Position numbers and translations under genes: made by a program | Assembly (NCBI GenBank): GCA_963662275.1 | Contig: OY759316.1 | Location: 576,001 to 640,000 of the forward strand | Origin: Candidatus Cloacimonadales bacterium | Lineage (GTDB): Bacteria; Cloacimonadota; Cloacimonadia; Cloacimonadales; DAONDQ01 | DNA: 64,000 nucleotides | Direction: 5' to 3' | Part shown: positions 19,321 through 55,232 of the stretch, piece by piece | How positions within the stretch are numbered: the stretch's first letter is position 1 | How the letters are laid out: the number at the start of each line of letters is the position of its first letter | The notes under the pieces: model-generated | What the model was told of the DNA's origin: nothing | The model's input: the letters and a program-made list of their open reading frames with translations, nothing else | The model's database searches: none

Positions 19321-20292
19321 CTAAACATTATAAATGTCAGTTTTATAAAGAGAGAGGTTCTCGTTTAAGAATTCAATCGTTTCACGAATACCGGAATCAA
19401 GATTATATGAAGGTTTCCAATCCGTATTCTCCATAATTTTCTGATTTGCACAATATAAACGTTCAACCTCGCTTTTACCAGGTCTTATCCGTTCATCATC
19501 CGTCTTTATCTCTATAGGAATTTGTAATAAATTACTTATCTTTTTTACCAAATCACCAATGGAGATTTCTTCACACATTCCAATATTTGTCACTTCTCCA
19601 AATAAACGATCTGATTGAAGAATAGAGATAAAGCCTCGAACTGTATCTTTTACAAATGTCAAGTCTCTTGTGGGATGCAAATTACCTAGATTGAGTTCTG
19701 TCTTACCGCTGAGTATTTGAGTAATGACAGTAGGAATTATCGCACGTGCTGATTGCCTCGGTCCATAAGTATTAAATGGTCTGACTATTTTTACCGGCAA
19801 GCCAAATGAACGGTAATAACTGATTGCCATTTGATCTGCTGCAATTTTAGATGCAGAATAGGGTGATTGACCAACAAGCGGGTGATTCTCATCAATGGGA
19901 ACATATTGAGCGGTTCCATATGTTTCACTTGTCGAAGTGACAAGAATGTTTTCCAAACTTCGTACTCTTGCGGTTTGAAGAACATTGTATGTACCTTCAA
20001 TATTGGTACGAATATAAGCTAAGGGCGAAACATAAGAATACGGAATACCGATGAGAGCAGCTAAATGAAGAACAGTGGAACATCCATCCATCGCATCATA
20101 TACAGAATCATAGTCGCGTATATCTCCGGTTACGATTTCCATATCGTTCTTGTACTTTGAATTTTCCAACCAACCCCAAAAATTCTTGGAGTTGTAATGG
20201 ACAAATGCTTTTACTTCATAACCCAACTCAACACAATATTCTGCCAAATGTGAACCAATAAAACCGCCTGCTCCAGTGATCAGTAATTTCAT
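19321..20292 (-). CDS. NDP-sugar 4,6-dehydratase (LegB-like)
   Basis: TGAGGFIGSH, LAALIGIPYSY, STSETYG, YSASK, RPFNTYGPRQS. Confidence 0.88.
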   Translation of the reverse strand: MKLLITGAGGFIGSHLAEYCVELGYEVKAFVHYNSKNFWGWLENSKYKNDMEIVTGDIRDYDSVYDAMDGCSTVLHLAALIGIPYSYVSPLAYIRTNIEGTYNVLQTARVRSLENILVTSTSETYGTAQYVPIDENHPLVGQSPYSASKIAADQMAISYYRSFGLPVKIVRPFNTYGPRQSARAIIPTVITQILSGKTELNLGNLHPTRDLTFVKDTVRGFISILQSDRLFGEVTNIGMCEEISIGDLVKKISNLLQIPIEIKTDDERIRPGKSEVERLYCANQKIMENTDWKPSYNLDSGIRETIEFLNENLSLYKTDIYNV

Positions 20293-20418
20293 CTTATTTC
20301 CTTATCTACTTTTTTTATTTGTGTTGCATGATTAACCTTCAAATCACGAAACTCTATCCTGATAAGATTTGTAAAAAATCCTGATATTTGGGTTTATTTC
20401 TCAGTAATTTATTGGTTA

Positions 20419-21117
20419 TCAATTCCCTGAAAAATGCTCCTGATAGACTTCTTGTGCTTTTTCGTAATCGTTAATACGACCAATATCGAGCCAATATTCT
20501 TTCAAATCAAATTTCGAAACAGGAATTTTATCATGCAGAAGGTTCTTAATCAGGCTATCCATACCAAAATAGGTATCGTCTGGTATATAGTCAAATATCT
20601 GGGGAGTCATCACATAGATGCCAGCAAGAAGATAGAGGACGATATCTGGCTTTTCCTGGATATCTGTAACATAGTCTCCATCAAAAAAGATATTTCCAAA
20701 GGCAAATGGTGTTATATCTTTCTTGACTGTGATCGTTAAAACTGTTTGTTTTTGTTTAGCAAAATCGTACAAATTTGAGAAATTGAGCAAAGTTAAAATA
20801 TCACCGTTCATAACGAGGAATGGCTCCGTAAGTTCCTTCTTCAAAAGCGTCAGGGGACCAGCAGTACCGAGAGGTTTTTCTTCTCGGCTGATACTAAGTT
20901 TCACACCATAGCGTGTACCATCACCGAAGAAATTTTCTATATAATTTGATTTATAATTCGTTGCTAAGAATATTTCATCAAAGCCGTGCTTTTTGAGATG
21001 CTCGATTTGAATCTCCATGACAGCTTTTTCCCCAATTGGCAATAAGGGTTTGGGAATCACTTCCGTAAATGGTTTAAGTCTCGTGCCTAAACCTCCAGCT
21101 AGAATCACTGCTTTCAT
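20419..21117 (-). CDS. Sugar-phosphate nucleotidyltransferase
   Basis: ILAGGLGTRLKP, PKPL, LGTAG, NGD, WLDIG. Confidence 0.92.
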   Translation of the reverse strand: MKAVILAGGLGTRLKPFTEVIPKPLLPIGEKAVMEIQIEHLKKHGFDEIFLATNYKSNYIENFFGDGTRYGVKLSISREEKPLGTAGPLTLLKKELTEPFLVMNGDILTLLNFSNLYDFAKQKQTVLTITVKKDITPFAFGNIFFDGDYVTDIQEKPDIVLYLLAGIYVMTPQIFDYIPDDTYFGMDSLIKNLLHDKIPVSKFDLKEYWLDIGRINDYEKAQEVYQEHFSGN

Positions 21118-21138
21118 GAATTCACCTTTCTCGATATT

Positions 21139-22080
21139 TTAATACGATGCTTTTATGGATTCGACTGTCTTAATTAATCCTGATTTAAAATTAACCAATG
21201 GTTTGAATTGCAGTCCTTCACCAGCTTTTTTTATACTGGCTAAGGAATGCTTTACATCTCCTGCTCGTTCCGGAGATAGAATCGGTTCTATCTTTGTACC
21301 TAATATCTCATTAAGAGATTCCACTAACTCCAGTAGAGTAAATCTTTCGCCACAAGCTATATTGAAAACATTACCGGCAACTCCGGGAGCTGTACATGCA
21401 ATAATATTCGCTGCCACATTATTATCCACGTAAGTAAAATCCCTGGATTGCGTCCCATCTCCATAGATGACAGGTCTGATATTCTTCATCATACATGTGA
21501 TGAATTTGGGTATGACTGCACTATATTGCGATGTGGGATCCTGGTTTGGACCAAATACGTTGAAATAACGAAGGCATACTGTTTCCAAATTATACAGGCT
21601 TGTATATATCTGGCAATAACGTTCTGCAGCATACTTCGTCAAAGCATATGGTGAAAGTGGTGCAACAGGCATATCCTCTTGTTTTGGCATAATTTCACTA
21701 TTTCCATAAACAGAGGACGATGAAGCATAAATTACCCTTTTCACACCAAACTCACGAGAAGCTTCCAGCACATTCAAGGTTCCTAGAATATTCACATCGT
21801 TCGTTGTTATGGGATCATTAATACTACGGGGAACAGAAGGTAGTGCACCTTGGTGAAGAACATAATCCACCCCTTTCACAGCACTGCGAACAATATGGAA
21901 ACTGCGTAAATCACCTTCGAACATTTCAAAATTGGGATTTGTCATAAATGGCAGAATATTACTTCGTTTTCCAGTGGCAAAGTTATCCAGAACCCGAATC
22001 TTGTATCCTTTATCTAAAAGCGTTTTTACAATATTCGAACCAATAAAACCGGCACCACCTGTAACCAAAAAAGTATTCAT
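21139..22080 (-). CDS. UDP-GlcNAc/Glc 4-epimerase (WbpP-like)
   Basis: TGGAGFIGS, PSVPRS, ASSSSVYG, PYALTK, LRYFNVFGP. Confidence 0.9.
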   Translation of the reverse strand: MNTFLVTGGAGFIGSNIVKTLLDKGYKIRVLDNFATGKRSNILPFMTNPNFEMFEGDLRSFHIVRSAVKGVDYVLHQGALPSVPRSINDPITTNDVNILGTLNVLEASREFGVKRVIYASSSSVYGNSEIMPKQEDMPVAPLSPYALTKYAAERYCQIYTSLYNLETVCLRYFNVFGPNQDPTSQYSAVIPKFITCMMKNIRPVIYGDGTQSRDFTYVDNNVAANIIACTAPGVAGNVFNIACGERFTLLELVESLNEILGTKIEPILSPERAGDVKHSLASIKKAGEGLQFKPLVNFKSGLIKTVESIKASY

Positions 22081-22240
22081 CTCAACTCTCCGTAAAAAAT
22101 GAGTAATTTGTATGTTATTCTCAGTTCCAAATTATCTACAAAATGAAGAATTATTCTTAATTTGTAATAACAACCAGCTTACATCTATCAAATTAGAGTT
22201 GTTTTTGTCAATTATTATGTCAGAATCCTATGTGGATATG

Positions 22241-48609: not shown

Positions 48610-49206
48610 TTATCGACTGAATGCATGAACATGATAACTGCCGATATTATCCACCCAATAAGTATTTTCAGGATCTATAGGGATAGAAATAATAACACGG
48701 GCAAACTGGACGGAAGGATGAAAAAATCCTGTAGAAAGGAGAATTTCCTGCCAGTAAGTAATCGTTTTTAACTTATTCATATAACTATCTTTTCTATTTC
48801 CGATTTTATCAAAAGTCCGAAAATACAAAGTCACAGGAGTTGCTGATGGTACCTTCGATCTAACATAACAACGATTAACATAAGCTGATCGATTATCAAC
48901 AGGGAAAGCTTCAGAGACAATGAGAATCTGCTGAGTTGGACCATCAATCTTGATGGACTTGTCTCCATTTTGAACAGAAAGGGAATCCCAGGAGATGATA
49001 TTTTGGAAATCTGCGTTGGAGAGAAATGTCCAATCTTTTGGAAGCTTTTTATCCGGTAAAAGAGGCATCTCGAAATCAGGATTGGAAATCAGGTTAGGTT
49101 TTCCAATGATATCTCGGTCATAGAATAACAGACTAGGTCCAAAGAAACAGCTAGTAAGACATATTAGTGCTGCTACAGTAAGACATGCTTTAAGAACAAA
49201 TTTCAT
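48610..49206 (-). CDS. Putative lipoprotein with CBM4/9-like galactose-binding fold
   Basis: Lipobox LTSC; NLISNPDFE; YWVDN. Confidence 0.6.
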   Translation of the reverse strand: MKFVLKACLTVAALICLTSCFFGPSLLFYDRDIIGKPNLISNPDFEMPLLPDKKLPKDWTFLSNADFQNIISWDSLSVQNGDKSIKIDGPTQQILIVSEAFPVDNRSAYVNRCYVRSKVPSATPVTLYFRTFDKIGNRKDSYMNKLKTITYWQEILLSTGFFHPSVQFARVIISIPIDPENTYWVDNIGSYHVHAFSR

Positions 49207-49221: not shown

Positions 49222-50442
49222 TTACTTCATAAAGCCACGTTCTAACAGATATTTCATCACGATTCCCACTGCAAGAGAATTGATCAATAGGTTCGAACCA
49301 CCATAACTGATAAATGGCAAAGGAATACCAGTTGTGGGTACGATACCGATATTCATTCCAATATTAATAAAAATCTGGAATGAAAGGTAAGCTGTTATCC
49401 CCGCTGATGCAATTTTCCTTTCTCTTACATTCAGTTTTCCCAATGCAAGTGTAAGATGCCATAAGAACAAAAAAAATACAACTAATAAAATAGAGCTACC
49501 AACAAATCCGAATTCTTCACCAATAACGGAGAAAATAAAATCCGTATGATGCTCGGGCAGGAAGTTCATATTTTTCTGCGTCCCCAGAAGAAATCCTTTC
49601 CCAAGTATACCACCTGAACCAATCGCTATTTTCGCTTGAATGATCTGATAACCAGCTCCTAATGGATCAAGGGTCGGATCAAGAAAAGTTAGTATCCGAT
49701 TCTGCTGATACGTTTTCAATCCCTGCCAGATAAATGGTGTAATCAGCGAAATAAAGACATTGATGACAACCGCAACGGCAATTCCAACCCAAGATAAGCG
49801 GTATTGTACTAAAAGATAAATAAATAGCAAGATAAAAATTATAAATATTAATAAATAAAAGGAAGTGATGATGCTCAATATTGGACTTATCATTAAAAGA
49901 ATGTAAATAAAGGGAATATCAGCCGCCGCATATATGGCAAGTAAGCTGAACCAGAAAACGATCGTTGTTCCAAAATCTGGTTCAATAAGGATGAGCGATA
50001 CTGGCAAGAGTGTGAGGACGAAACCCTTCAGCATAATGGAAAGTTCACTGAGGTAAGGTTTTGATAAAGCCTTTGCCACAACTAGGATTGTGAATAGTTT
50101 AGCCATTTCAGATGGCTGGAAATGAAGGAAACCGAATTGGAACCATCTATGAGAACCATTGATTGCAGGTAAGAATAAAACAACGACTAATGTCAGCAAA
50201 CTAAAAATATAACCGGGAATGATGAGCAAATCGATAATGGCAAAAGGAATTCTAAATAACAAGTAAAGTGTCACAAGAACAAAGACAACAAAAATTGCCT
50301 GTTTCCACCAGAAGTTCTTGATATTGTAACTATCGCCAATCTTCGTTGTCGAAGCACTATATATAGCAAATACTCCTAAAAGAAGTAGGATTACAAGAAG
50401 AATGAACAAAGTCCAGTCGAAGTTCTTACTCTGTAAAAACAT
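49222..50442 (-). CDS. rodA: Rod shape-determining protein RodA
   Basis: FQPSEMAK, EPDFGT, GYQIIQ, LPEHHTDFIF, TGIPLPFISYGGS. Confidence 0.95.
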   Translation of the reverse strand: MFLQSKNFDWTLFILLVILLLLGVFAIYSASTTKIGDSYNIKNFWWKQAIFVVFVLVTLYLLFRIPFAIIDLLIIPGYIFSLLTLVVVLFLPAINGSHRWFQFGFLHFQPSEMAKLFTILVVAKALSKPYLSELSIMLKGFVLTLLPVSLILIEPDFGTTIVFWFSLLAIYAAADIPFIYILLMISPILSIITSFYLLIFIIFILLFIYLLVQYRLSWVGIAVAVVINVFISLITPFIWQGLKTYQQNRILTFLDPTLDPLGAGYQIIQAKIAIGSGGILGKGFLLGTQKNMNFLPEHHTDFIFSVIGEEFGFVGSSILLVVFFLFLWHLTLALGKLNVRERKIASAGITAYLSFQIFINIGMNIGIVPTTGIPLPFISYGGSNLLINSLAVGIVMKYLLERGFMK

Positions 50443-52235
50443 TAAGATTTCCCCGCAACTACTTTTTCCGTACCATTTTTCATTTGATCATGATAATAGT
50501 GCATGATCCGACCAGCAATCGGGGCTGCTGAAGAACCACCGTGTCCAGCATTTTCCATAAACACACACACAGCTATTTGTGGAGTATCGGTACAATAATA
50601 ACCAACAAACCAGGCATGTGTAGATCTGCCAGCAATATTTTCAGCAGAGCCTGTTTTTCCATAAACCGAGGCTCCATCAAACCTGGCTGCACCTCCAGTA
50701 CCTCCTGGAGCATTAACAACCTTAAACAATCCTTCATGAATAATTCTTAGTGTACTTGAAGAAATTGGGAGTTGAGTCTCTAGATCCTGGTTCAAGTCCT
50801 TAAACAGAATAGTTTTTGTGCCAATAGCACGATCCAGTAAATGAGGTCTGATCCATTTACCATTATTAGCAAGTGCTGAATAATAGGCACACATCTGTAA
50901 GGGAGAAACTTGAATTTCTCCCTGGCCTATTGAAAGATTGACTTTTGGTCCGATAATTCCTGTAGATTTTCCGTAGTGTTTTTTGTACCAGAGAGTATTT
51001 GGGAACAAGCCTTCTCTTTCGTTCGGTAAATCCACACCTGTTCTCTGTGCCAGGTGATTTCCAAAAACAAAAGCCTGGAAATCATCTAATTTATATTTTA
51101 AGGAAAGGTCATAAAAAAATACATCACATGAGACACGGAGTGCTTCCTCGACGGGAAGTGAGCCATGTCCTGTTCGACTCCAACAGCGAAAGAATCGATT
51201 ACCAACCTGGAGTCCTCCTGTGCATGGACGATCTAAGGAATACTGACTGATAATACCTTTTTGTAAGCCATAGCTTGCTGGTATGGGTTTAAAAACAGAA
51301 CCCGGGGGGTAGACTCCATGAATTACCCTATCGAGCATTGGTTTATTGGGATCAAGATTAACTTTATCCCAATCTTCTTTTTTTAGTTTTGTCATCATGA
51401 TATTCTGATCAAAGTCCGGTTTGCTGGCATATGCAAGGATACCGCCTGTTTTTACATCCATTACAACAATAGCTCCATTGACTCCATTTGGAAAAGCAGA
51501 ACTAGCGAATTGCTGTAAATCAGAATCAATAGTCAGAATTAAACTCAATCCATTTTCAGGAGTTTGAGTCAGGTTATGTTTAAACAGATTTAGACTTTTC
51601 CCGGAAGCATCTACCTGGATAATCTCATTTCCATCTTTTCCATGTAAAAGGACTTCATAATATTTTTCTAAACCTGTTTTTCCTAAACTGCTATTGATGG
51701 AATAACCTTCTTCTTTCACTTTATCATACTCAACAGCATTGATACGACCGACATAACCGGTAAAATGGTTGGGAATCAGATACTGGCGTGTTGTTTCTAC
51801 CTTAAAATTCAAACAGGGATAATAGTTTAAATCTTCTGAAACTCGCATCATTGTATCATAATCGGTGTTTTCGGCTATCAGGATATCCTGGTATGAACGA
51901 AATCTGCTGCTTAAGATCAAGGAATCGACTTCCATATGATTAATTCCATAATTGACTTGCAAAAATTGCTTCAATCTCTTGGTGTTGTTGATTTTGGCAG
52001 GAGTTAGATAGAGGTTGAGAGATGGAATATTGATGACCATTGGTTTATAATTTCGATCATAGATTTCACCACGAGTTGCAGGTATTCTATTTAATCTGAC
52101 AAAGTTACGTTCTGCGATTTGGTGATAATAATTCCCCTTGATAATCTGCAATTCAAAAAGGGCAGATAATAGGAAAAGGAAAAGTGCTACAAGAATAATG
52201 CGGAATGTATTGGATGGAGTGAAATTAGTCTTCAT
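50442..52235 (-). CDS. mrdA: Penicillin-binding protein 2
   Basis: RGEIYDRN, YPPGSVFK, SCDVFFY, IGQG, GKTGSA. Confidence 0.95.
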   Translation of the reverse strand: MKTNFTPSNTFRIILVALFLFLLSALFELQIIKGNYYHQIAERNFVRLNRIPATRGEIYDRNYKPMVINIPSLNLYLTPAKINNTKRLKQFLQVNYGINHMEVDSLILSSRFRSYQDILIAENTDYDTMMRVSEDLNYYPCLNFKVETTRQYLIPNHFTGYVGRINAVEYDKVKEEGYSINSSLGKTGLEKYYEVLLHGKDGNEIIQVDASGKSLNLFKHNLTQTPENGLSLILTIDSDLQQFASSAFPNGVNGAIVVMDVKTGGILAYASKPDFDQNIMMTKLKKEDWDKVNLDPNKPMLDRVIHGVYPPGSVFKPIPASYGLQKGIISQYSLDRPCTGGLQVGNRFFRCWSRTGHGSLPVEEALRVSCDVFFYDLSLKYKLDDFQAFVFGNHLAQRTGVDLPNEREGLFPNTLWYKKHYGKSTGIIGPKVNLSIGQGEIQVSPLQMCAYYSALANNGKWIRPHLLDRAIGTKTILFKDLNQDLETQLPISSSTLRIIHEGLFKVVNAPGGTGGAARFDGASVYGKTGSAENIAGRSTHAWFVGYYCTDTPQIAVCVFMENAGHGGSSAAPIAGRIMHYYHDQMKNGTEKVVAGKS

Positions 52236-52734
52236 TGAAATTCAATTTCATTCGATAGAATAGGGATAGGGCATATGTAAAAATGACTGATAAAGCAGTG
52301 TTATAAACAATATTGAAAAGAACTAAAGGTATCAGTTTGATGGAATAACCCATCATGACAAGTTGAACTACAAAAAAAATGATAAAATATATGAGATTTA
52401 CAATGCTGATGATGATAATATGGGAGAGGAACTTTTCCTTATCTAGACTCTGGTGAAAACTATTAACGATTAATGAGAGGACTATGTAGCACAGAGTATT
52501 AATTCCCAGGAGATTCGGAGTTGTTAAATCCTGCATGATTCCAAGAAAAAAAATGATTGTTAAGGCAGGGATGATACTCATATTAAGATTAAGAAATACA
52601 ACGAAGGCAAGCATAAAATTGGGCACAATGCCAAATATGGAAATACCCGGGGCAATAATGACCTGCATATATAAAAGGATGATTCCCATTCCAACTAAAC
52701 GAATAAGATTCCACATTGGAAATTCCCGATTCAA
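52225..52734 (-). CDS. mreD: Rod shape-determining protein MreD
   Basis: Hydrophobic, PNF, GIMQDL...LGIN; operon position. Confidence 0.85.
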   Translation of the reverse strand: MNREFPMWNLIRLVGMGIILLYMQVIIAPGISIFGIVPNFMLAFVVFLNLNMSIIPALTIIFFLGIMQDLTTPNLLGINTLCYIVLSLIVNSFHQSLDKEKFLSHIIIISIVNLIYFIIFFVVQLVMMGYSIKLIPLVLFNIVYNTALSVIFTYALSLFYRMKLNFNED

Positions 52735-53426
52735 GCAGTACCTGCTAAATGTTTACGGATAATGCAGATAGGGGTAAGTTCATCTCCTTGGCCTTGTGGA
52801 TTATCTTTCATCACTTTTTGCATGAATGCTTTATCAATTCCTTTGCTGCCACCTATCATCCAACATCCGCCAATGTCATTGATATCCATAATCGCAGTTT
52901 CATATCCTAAGGCGTCATAAATTGCCTGAGATTCCTTTTCCGGATGCAAAGGACCTTTAATTACACATTGATCATAAGGAGGAACAGGTGAAGTATGTGC
53001 TGCATCAATCAAGGCAGCCTGCATACCCGCGATAAGATAAAAGTCGCCTTTCCTGCCTATCAACTTACCTAAGGCACCTACAAGAGCAGCAAAAAGAATA
53101 CGCCAAGCTCCACACTCATCAATAGCGCATTGCATACTTTCAGGAGCTCTTAACCCGATGCCATAGGGTACTTTTGCTACAAAACGCCATAATATCCTGG
53201 CAAGGAGTCCTATTTTCAATTGCGAGACTGGAACAGCCCTGCCTTGTGTAATGGCAAGCGGACTTTCGCTAATGGAAATGATGTCTCCTTGTTGGAGAAC
53301 ATTTCCGGCTGATTCTAGGATAATATCTGTAAGTGAATCACCGGGCATGAGAATTCTGGTTTTTATCGGAATTCTTTCGTATTGGATGCTATCAATCTCA
53401 ATGATTGGTTGAAAGTTCTTTTTCAT
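52731..53426 (-). CDS. Coenzyme F420-0:gamma-glutamyl ligase (CofE)-like protein
   Basis: PIKTRIL.PGD, GDIISISES.LAITQGR, FY.IAG....ID, IMDINDIG, DNPQGQGDELTP. Confidence 0.75.
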   Translation of the reverse strand: MKKNFQPIIEIDSIQYERIPIKTRILMPGDSLTDIILESAGNVLQQGDIISISESPLAITQGRAVPVSQLKIGLLARILWRFVAKVPYGIGLRAPESMQCAIDECGAWRILFAALVGALGKLIGRKGDFYLIAGMQAALIDAAHTSPVPPYDQCVIKGPLHPEKESQAIYDALGYETAIMDINDIGGCWMIGGSKGIDKAFMQKVMKDNPQGQGDELTPICIIRKHLAGTA

Positions 53427-54189
53427 AACTCATCTCCCTATTACCTTTCAGGACGAATACCGTTTCGGCGTTTTCAATCAAGGCAAAAGGCTGAATTTCT
53501 GCCTTTAAAAAAAGATTATCCTGGGATTCTTTCAGCTTTATGATCTTCCCGATCGGATATCCTTTTGGAAATATCTGCGAAATATTGGATGTTACAAGAG
53601 TATCACCGATATTGATCTGTGAACCTAATTTTATCATACCCATATAAACTCGACCATAATAATCTGTTTCCAGAACTCCCTGCACATTAGATGTCTTATC
53701 CATGATTGCTAATTTGAACAGGCTATGTGATAATGGTAAAATGACTGCATAATTGCGAGTAACGGTAATCACTTTACCAACTACTCCCTCGGCTGAAATT
53801 ACCGGATCATTCTGATTTATCTTATCATGAAATCCTTTATTAATAATCAGATTACGTTCCCAGAAATTACCGCTATACCCAATGACTTCTGCAACAATAA
53901 AACTCTTCCCAGCCAGGTTACGAGGTATATTCATACTGTTTTGTATCGTGTACAAACGGTTCTCCAGATTGAGTATATAAAGCGTTTGCTGAGCTACCTT
54001 TTCACTTAATTTGAGGTTGTTTTCACTTAATGTCTTCGTATTTTGAATACTAGTCACACTTTTCATGAAAGGTGGAAATATATAGTTACCCAGCCATTGT
54101 GCTTTTTGTATTCGTGTTTGTGTTGTACCCAGTAATAAGAATAATGCCAGGATTAAATACAAAAGCGCAACGATACGTTCCTTGGTCAC
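53398..54189 (-). CDS. mreC: Rod shape-determining protein MreC
   Basis: TM plus coiled coil, AEVIG, IINKG, GVVGKV, GDTLVTS, FPKGYPIG. Confidence 0.92.
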   Translation of the reverse strand: MTKERIVALLYLILALFLLLGTTQTRIQKAQWLGNYIFPPFMKSVTSIQNTKTLSENNLKLSEKVAQQTLYILNLENRLYTIQNSMNIPRNLAGKSFIVAEVIGYSGNFWERNLIINKGFHDKINQNDPVISAEGVVGKVITVTRNYAVILPLSHSLFKLAIMDKTSNVQGVLETDYYGRVYMGMIKLGSQINIGDTLVTSNISQIFPKGYPIGKIIKLKESQDNLFLKAEIQPFALIENAETVFVLKGNREMSYEKELSTNH

Positions 54190-54194
54190 GATAC

Positions 54195-55232
54195 TCAGTC
54201 TTCAATTTTTTTTATCAGAACTTCTCGATAGCTTTCAATGTCGTCAAGGATTCTACCGGCACCCTTGACAACAGCAGTCAAGGGGTCTGGTACGACATGA
54301 ACAGGTAAGTCGACAGTATTTCGAATTCGTTCATCCAGCCCTTTAAGTAGAGCACCACCACCAGTCAGGAAGATACCCCTTTCGGCAATATCAGCAGCTA
54401 ATTCGGGTGCCGTTCTTTCAAAGAGACGCTTGATCGCATCAATCATAGCAGTCACCGTCTCAGCCAGAGCTTCACGAATTTCTTCAGAACCCATTTTAAT
54501 TGTAACAGGATAACCAGTGATGATATCGCGTCCCCTGACTTCCATGTTAAGTTCCTGCTTTAAAGGATAGGCTGAACCGATCTTTAATTTGATCTTTTCT
54601 GCTGTTTGAATACCAACAAAGATATTGTTTTTCTTTCGCAGGTAATTCACAATATCCAAATCAAGCTTATCACCACCGATACGTATGGAATTATGAACGA
54701 CGATATGAGAAAGGGAAATAACAGCTATTTCACTAGTACCACCACCGATATCCATGATTAAGTTACCGTAAGGTTTGTCGATTGGGAGATCAGCACCTAT
54801 TGCAGCAGCAATTGGTTCCGAAACCAGAAACACTTCCCTGGCTCCAGCATGAAGAGCGCTGTCACGTACCGCTCGTTTTTCCACTTCCGTGATACCGGAG
54901 GGAACACAGACAATTACACGCGGACGAACTAAGAGTCTTTTTTTCTGAGCACGAAGAATCAGGTTTCTCAGCATGAGCTCAGTCACTTGGAAATCAGCTA
55001 TTACACCATCTTTTAATGGTTTAATTACACGTACTTCATCAGGATTTTTTCCGAGCATTTCTTTTGCTGGCATCCCAATGGCAATCATTTTTTTATTATC
55101 TGCTGACATAGCAACAACGGAAGGTTCATCAATCACAACACCGGAATTCTTTTTATATACGAGAGTGTTGGCAGTACCGAGATCAATAGCAATATCATTT
55201 GCCAAAACACCAAAGATTTTTAGAAAATTCAT
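54195..55232 (-). CDS. mreB: Rod shape-determining protein MreB
   Basis: AIDLGTANT, PLKDGVIADF, DIGGGTSE, LTGGGALL. Confidence 0.97.
   Translation of the reverse strand: MNFLKIFGVLANDIAIDLGTANTLVYKKNSGVVIDEPSVVAMSADNKKMIAIGMPAKEMLGKNPDEVRVIKPLKDGVIADFQVTELMLRNLILRAQKKRLLVRPRVIVCVPSGITEVEKRAVRDSALHAGAREVFLVSEPIAAAIGADLPIDKPYGNLIMDIGGGTSEIAVISLSHIVVHNSIRIGGDKLDLDIVNYLRKKNNIFVGIQTAEKIKLKIGSAYPLKQELNMEVRGRDIITGYPVTIKMGSEEIREALAETVTAMIDAIKRLFERTAPELAADIAERGIFLTGGGALLKGLDERIRNTVDLPVHVVPDPLTAVVKGAGRILDDIESYREVLIKKIED

Follow-up and report, generated by a model that had tools for sequence, protein, structure and literature searches.

A CofE-fold candidate amide ligase encoded in the mre operon of Cloacimonadota

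The mre operon and its additional gene

The window considered here, meaning the whole 64,000-nucleotide stretch of DNA that was analyzed, comes from a Candidatus Cloacimonadales bacterium and contains an mre operon in the order mreB-mreC-X-mreD-pbp2-rodA, its genes assigned with Pfam and NCBIfam models. X denotes the gene of interest. The components, all on the minus strand, are as follows.

54195..55232, minus strand: mreB (Pfam and NCBIfam)
53398..54189, minus strand: mreC (Pfam and NCBIfam); its final 29 bp are shared with the start of X
52731..53426, minus strand: X, candidate CofE-fold amide ligase, 231 aa; open reading frame with an ATG start
52225..52734, minus strand: mreD (Pfam and NCBIfam); its start overlaps or closely trails the X stop
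50442..52235, minus strand: pbp2 (mrdA); TIGR03423 above cut-off
49222..50442, minus strand: rodA; TIGR02210 above cut-off
48610..49206, minus strand: lipoprotein-like gene, 198 aa, 3' of rodA; weak CBM_4_9 match

A preliminary description of this DNA had reported a CofE-like gene of 231 aa that shares 29 bp with mreC and abuts mreD, and both boundaries were borne out. mreC ends at 53398, within X (52731-53426), and mreD starts either at a TTG at 52734, sharing the 4 bp TTGA with the X stop, or at an ATG 14 bp past that stop. The GC and GC3 of X (0.42 and 0.33) are close to those of mreB (0.42 and 0.32), and X therefore shows no sign of recent insertion. The lipoprotein-like gene at 48610-49206 recurs 3' of rodA in 7 of the 14 relative loci fetched, whether X is present or absent.

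Is this placement peculiar to one genome? It is not. Nearly all named close homologues of X belong to Cloacimonadota, where X was found, as a single gene each time, in 125 of 151 genomes (MreC passed its cut-off in 147 of these 151). X lies immediately 3' of mreC in 120 of the 125, so the placement is not due to chance. The five exceptions comprise a genome whose mreC is split, with a gap of 883 bp, another in which X sits at a contig end and still precedes mreD, and three, all of one genus, in which X has been relocated away from the mre operon. Each relocated copy converges with a similar gene, which is NlpC/P60 in the single copy that was scanned. At one locus (L034; G021:C148), mreC is in two pieces and an opposite-strand open reading frame lies between mreC and X. 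In 23 genomes, mreC is present and X is unmatched; mreC and mreD are adjacent in all 7 of these that were fetched, and X is therefore dispensable for the mre operon. Across 28 loci chosen as the best X matches, a choice that favours X over the others, median identity is 71% for X, 43% for MreC, 34% for MreD, and 53% for PBP2. X is a real feature, kept phylum-wide in Cloacimonadota. The preliminary description had also proposed coupling to the elongasome. This is supported as co-location only: X is absent or moved in some genomes with the operon intact, relatives of X lie at rpoD, murI, murB, or amidase loci, and no physical link of X to the elongasome is claimed here.

The fold of X and the cofactor genes of its genome

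What kind of protein is X? It matches PF01996 (E 1.6e-8) over residues 21-102 only and scores 12.2 bits against the NCBIfam CofE equivalog model NF009809, far below the cut-off of 274. A phmmer search of X against PDB sequences gave no significant match, and a profile of X against the PDB found CofE as the sole match (E ~4e-6). The AlphaFold model (pLDDT 94.3, pTM 0.91, built on a 62-sequence alignment) likewise matched only the CofE of A. fulgidus (Foldseek E 1.9e-9, TM 0.58); by VIA, this comparison gave Z 16.0 and an rmsd of 3.1 over 181 aligned residues, with the next match at Z 4.8. Profile alignment (hhalign) of X with six CofE-like sequences of actinobacterial loci had a probability of 98%. 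X has the CofE fold, but X is not CofE.

The conserved residues of X are T23, D48, E54, Q61, D141, D181-x-N183-D184, N209-P-x-G212, and T218-P219, and the C-terminal motif carries Q/N at 213. D141 and D181/N183, which are candidate metal ligands, line up with GVDASN and SDT of CofE and are kept in 99-100% of 612 family domains. In CofE, GTP and two metals activate a carboxylate, and a domain-swapped hairpin holds F420, as described in PMC10861534. Past the DT motif, X does not align with this F420-binding hairpin region (hhalign, the same six sequences), and the model has there one short strand and two elements, with no long hairpin. X also has a helical subdomain at ~71-134 with an insert of ~27 residues, hydrophobic and basic, and an amphipathic helix at 71-87, from which a membrane-facing substrate may be predicted.

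Could the organism make F420? The preliminary description saw no other F420 genes in the window, and this extends to the genome, which is 99.97% complete and in which CofD has no match and CofC and CofG have sub-cut-off matches only. folC is present (C1:993528-994730, 345 bits), so a role of the FolC2 type is not vacant for X. Elsewhere, in G463 and G213, X and CofE-like genes coexist. The two AsnB genes of the X genome belong to polysaccharide loci distant from X, and murI, at C1:2092048, is unlinked to it. MurE carries a DNPR motif, which we take to be of the mDAP type. It is part of a MurE-MurF fusion of 929 aa in the dcw cluster (L259:5626-8412). Relevant to a polyamine donor are speD-speE together with a group IV decarboxylase of 394 aa that is below all named cut-offs. 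No SLH domain was found in this genome. It does carry poly-gamma-glutamate genes (L260:3361-6187; G000:C1 ~19360-22190), with PgsB and TIGR04332 above cut-off and PgsC just below. At L256:2675-7397, an ATP-grasp-like gene, an FslC/LysA-like decarboxylase, and a urea-transporter/M23-peptidase fusion stand side by side, all below named cut-offs.

The wider family and its exchange with MurT/GatD

At E <= 0.001, the X family comprises 867 representative proteins, with named members in cyanobacteria, Eremiobacterota, Armatimonadetes, clostridia, Erysipelothrix, and Microbacteriaceae; homologues occur in 96 of 261 sampled Bacillota genomes. Among 75 long homologues scanned for fusions, TPR (12), AsnB/GATase (10), and Amidase_3 (6) recur, and Mur ligase, PlsY, CDP-alcohol phosphotransferase, M20 peptidase, GNAT, HD, adenylate kinase, and polysaccharide deacetylase occur once each. 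That TPR fusions outnumber every single cell-wall fusion type counts against a cell-wall reading. The AsnB part keeps both of its motifs in only 6 of 17 fusions checked. Near X in 76 Bacillota loci (30 best matches and 46 picked by hand, not a random draw) are amidases (14), MurJ-like flippases (10), murI (7), pyruvoyl arginine decarboxylases (6), and Orn/Lys/Arg decarboxylases (2). Most of 80 named X-family loci have no obvious cell-wall neighbour, and murB follows X in only 4 of them. No folate or F420 genes were seen among the recurrent neighbours of X-family loci.

Plasmid records gave no match to X, and phage records gave two unannotated records that match the family. One of them, labelled bacteriophage (L128; MT835656.1), encodes, amid housekeeping genes, a protein identical to an AsnB fusion of Brachybacterium paraconglomeratum and is therefore probably chromosomal. 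A glycine amide in the Brachybacterium wall found no confirmation: the paper on the Brachybacterium faecium genome describes the wall as type A4-gamma (A31.2) and names no glycine (PMC3035206). In a quick tree search on 169 rows picked from the 612 domains, copies from Microbacteriaceae group with those from Erysipelothrix in a single clade (SH-aLRT 98), and the Cloacimonadota branch deep and join the short-loop side, a placement that is not firm (SH-aLRT 94, midpoint root). The short loop is found in Veillonella-type, amidase-fused, and decarboxylase-linked forms; the long GIGL loop of X is common to the Microbacteriaceae, Erysipelothrix, and AsnB-fusion forms.

In group B peptidoglycan, the bridge is carried on the alpha-carboxyl of D-Glu, whose substituents decide cross-linking in these walls; Microbacteriaceae and Erysipelothrix have group B walls bridged in this way. 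Every one of 29 Microbacteriaceae loci places X after rpoD; an ATP-grasp gene accompanies it in 27 of them, and alanine-racemase-like genes do so in 24. A new observation here is that this rpoD slot holds either X or murT with a GatD that lacks its catalytic Cys. Across 151 Microbacteriaceae genomes, X (counted at E below 1e-50) occurs in 21, MurT_C in 104, both in 1, and neither, as far as these queries go, in 27; the single genome with both has an X-murT-gatD operon at a site other than the rpoD slot. Eighteen of the 104 MurT loci, spread over the score range, were fetched: 12 are in the rpoD slot (one with an intervening gene), 5 high-scoring ones lie elsewhere, and 1 is the operon shared with X. 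The catalytic Cys is replaced in all 11 rpoD-slot GatD sequences aligned and is kept in the control GatD of a high-scoring locus. GatD C94 has a catalytic role, and MurT/GatD acts on the D-iGlu alpha-carboxyl, according to PMC6113224. A MurT with a dead glutaminase would be expected if the amine were an amino acid, and X, in replacing it, is pointed to the same carboxyl. The Cys-less murT-gatD pairs (L151-L162) are themselves candidates for the amino-acid ligase of the group B bridge.

Overlap is nil in two other samples. In the order to which Microbacteriaceae belong (251 genomes, MurT_C in 82), overlap with X is 0 of 32, with 10.5 expected, and in Erysipelotrichales (101 genomes, MurT_C in 38), it is 0 of 8, with 3.0 expected. 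The genomes in these counts are related, the family and order samples share members, and the Microbacteriaceae copies of X form one clade; the exclusion may therefore rest on few events, the murT swap may be a single one, and P values overstate the effect. MurT_C was found in 0 of 151 Cloacimonadota genomes, and X itself contains neither the Mur-ligase middle domain nor MurT_C by Pfam. Speaking against exclusion are the 261 Bacillota genomes (X in 96, MurT_C in 93), in which both occur together 33 times against 34 expected. Two simple rules are thus ruled out: that X always excludes MurT, by this Bacillota overlap, and that X serves as the bridge ligase of all group B walls, by its presence in only 21 of 151 Microbacteriaceae.

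Why would a bacterium carry both X and MurT? In four of the 33 Bacillota genomes with both, 3-6 kb separate X from murT, and GatD keeps its Cys in the one checked. X may add an amino acid that MurT/GatD, or the fused AsnB, then amidates, or X may work at a different site. The latter would fit an alternative in which X ligates elsewhere on the stem, at the epsilon-carboxyl of mDAP, at the C-terminus, or in a later interpeptide-bridge step. In its favour are the co-occurrence just described, the X-murT-gatD operon in G537, the ATP-grasp and racemase-like genes beside X in Microbacteriaceae, and the fusions to AsnB, an enzyme that amidates mDAP in Listeria (PMC8554201). It is judged unlikely, since the in-place exchange with murT-gatD, together with an overlap that is nil or almost nil in three samples, indicates the carboxyl used by MurT and murI adjoins X in the Veillonella-type loci. 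Indirectly, the slot swap and the overlap counts narrow the probable target of X to the alpha-carboxyl of stem D-Glu.

In Negativicutes, cadaverine or putrescine is attached to the position-2 D-Glu (10.1101/2021.05.31.446380; PMC12826042), and the substituents of its alpha-carboxyl decide outer-membrane anchoring (10.1101/2021.05.31.446380). For Veillonella parvula, the published table lists in succession Vpar_0429 (thioesterase), 0430 (glutamate racemase), and 0431 (single-TM protein) (PMC5491611, Supplementary Table 1), and then Vpar_0432 (COG1478, "uncharacterized"), 0433 (hydantoinase), 0434 (deacetylase), and 0435 (RNase PH) (PMC5491611). In the locus L222, a thioesterase gene is followed by those of a racemase, the single-TM partner, an X homologue (E 1.4e-61), a hydantoinase, a protein of 445 aa, and RNase PH. 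Its X homologue occupies the position of Vpar_0432, two genes past the glutamate racemase, and the orthology of the two is drawn from gene order as that table gives it. Nine loci carry this block in part. The single-TM partner corresponds to the N-terminal domain of the 400-aa X-family forms. At L216-L224, L246, L247, and L250, a single-TM gene of 170-220 aa beside X has no Pfam match and represents an unnamed partner domain, the same one that is N-terminal in the 400-aa cyanobacterial-type forms. No homologue of this partner was found in the X genome.

Proposed function and known systems

What, then, does X do? Relatives of X replace a known cell-wall enzyme elsewhere, and the F420 genes searched (CofC, CofD, and CofG) are missing, so X probably links an amine to the peptide of the cell wall, as an enzyme not described before. 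That it carries out some ligation on a peptidoglycan precursor is quite likely. The more specific reading favoured here, held with moderate confidence, is that X is a CofE-fold, NTP-dependent ligase that places an amine on the alpha-carboxyl of the stem D-glutamate, the target of MurT: a known fold and a known chemistry in an undescribed pairing. X would work in the cytoplasm, probably leaning on the membrane, as an amide ligase that requires a nucleotide and metal. By analogy with CofE, it would activate the free alpha-carboxyl of the position-2 D-isoglutamate as an acyl-phosphate and then join it to an amine, the carboxyl being the one that MurT/GatD amidates with ammonia. The substrate may be lipid II rather than a UDP-linked precursor, and the position in the mre operon would co-express X with side-wall synthesis. 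The donor may quite possibly be a small amino acid such as Gly; a polyamine is a possibility to be held a little more tentatively, and ammonia or another donor is rather unlikely. The long GIGL loop and a genome lacking the TM partner and SLH domains set X apart from the Veillonella-type forms, but the tree placement, which is not firm, and the presence of speD-speE and the group IV decarboxylase lean the other way. The X operon has no glutaminase partner, and the donor is therefore probably not glutamine-derived ammonia. The undescribed amide ligase acting on peptidoglycan precursors that the preliminary description had proposed is thus the best-supported reading, upheld in part by the phylum-wide linkage and the missing F420 genes among those searched. 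The literature searched yielded no link between the X family and peptidoglycan and no gene assigned to the D-Glu alpha-carboxyl substitution reactions; a prior assignment in older or subscription work is possible.

Might X make its amide on some other part of the envelope, be it a lipid, a protein, or a secondary wall polymer? PlsY, CDP-alcohol phosphotransferase, and polysaccharide deacetylase, each found fused in one homologue, could be taken that way, as could the 12 TPR fusions among 75, the amphipathic helix 71-87, and the MurJ-like neighbours, which could serve other polymers. The recurrent partners are nevertheless peptidoglycan-specific (mreC and mreD, murI, murB, amidase, and the murT slot), and the lipid-enzyme fusions, one protein each, may be gene-calling artefacts, making this alternative improbable. 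Still less probable is that X takes no part in wall chemistry and is a passenger in the mre operon or an accessory without catalytic function. Its repeated loss or movement in Cloacimonadota with the operon intact, and the unrelated neighbours of many clostridial X loci, would fit such a role; set against them are an identity above that of MreC, MreD, and PBP2 in the 28 loci chosen as best X matches, the near-invariant acidic and amide residues over 612 domains, and separate insertions into different wall operons. Finally, polyglutamylation of a cofactor, F420 as by CofE or folate as by FolC2, the COG1478 member that replaces FolC in Chlamydia (PMC4161248), is suggested by the common fold and very improbable given the unmatched CofD, the sub-cut-off CofC and CofG, the presence of folC, the unaligned hairpin region, the coexistence of X with CofE-like genes in two genomes, and recurrent neighbours that include no folate or F420 gene.

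Ligation at the D-Glu alpha-carboxyl invites a broader proposal, put forward tentatively: the X family may be the unidentified enzyme class behind several wall chemotypes at this carboxyl, namely (i) the polyamine linkage of Negativicutes, (ii) the first residue of the group B bridge in some Microbacteriaceae and Erysipelothrix, and (iii) amino-acid amides made with an AsnB fusion or with MurT/GatD. If so, the family would be a second, unrelated solution to the chemistry of MurT, found in about one-third of the Bacillota sampled, in cyanobacteria, and in most of the Cloacimonadota, whose diderm wall would then carry a modification not described so far. Group B bridges would, on this view, have their other ligase in the Cys-less MurT-GatD pair. 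Named candidates that the family offers are Vpar_0432 in V. parvula and, in Microbacterium, the gene that follows rpoD; a modified wall is also predicted for a phylum that is largely uncultured. Many database entries named "coenzyme F420-0:L-glutamate ligase" also come from organisms or contexts in which F420 is an unlikely substrate.

How does X compare with known systems? CofE (A. fulgidus; PDB 2PHN, 2G9I, and 7ULD) and FbiB's N-terminal domain have the same fold, and the GD, DxN, and Asp motifs of CofE have aligned counterparts in X, for which acyl-phosphate chemistry is presumed. The two differ in that identity is 17%, the SKAEGR lysine is replaced, and the hairpin region is unaligned, and in the ~27-residue helical insert, the cell-wall gene context, and the genome without the F420 pathway genes searched. 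FolC2 (CT611), the chlamydial folylglutamate synthase, is a precedent for a CofE-family protein acting on a substrate other than F420; its gene belongs to a folate operon and stands in for a missing folC, whereas X lies in an mre operon in a genome that has folC. The lipid-intermediate:diamine transferase activity of Selenomonas and Veillonella adds an amine to the position-2 D-Glu, and the Veillonella-type locus holds an X homologue beside murI. That form has the short loop and a single-TM partner gene, whereas X carries the long GIGL loop and its genome encodes no homologue of the partner; murI, moreover, is unlinked there, and SLH domains are lacking. MurT/GatD has the same target as that proposed for X, the D-iGlu alpha-carboxyl, and yields the same Microbacteriaceae slot to it, with overlaps of 1 of 21, 0 of 32, and 0 of 8 in the three samples. 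It differs in its Mur-ligase fold, in its glutaminase partner, and in co-occurring freely with X in Bacillota.
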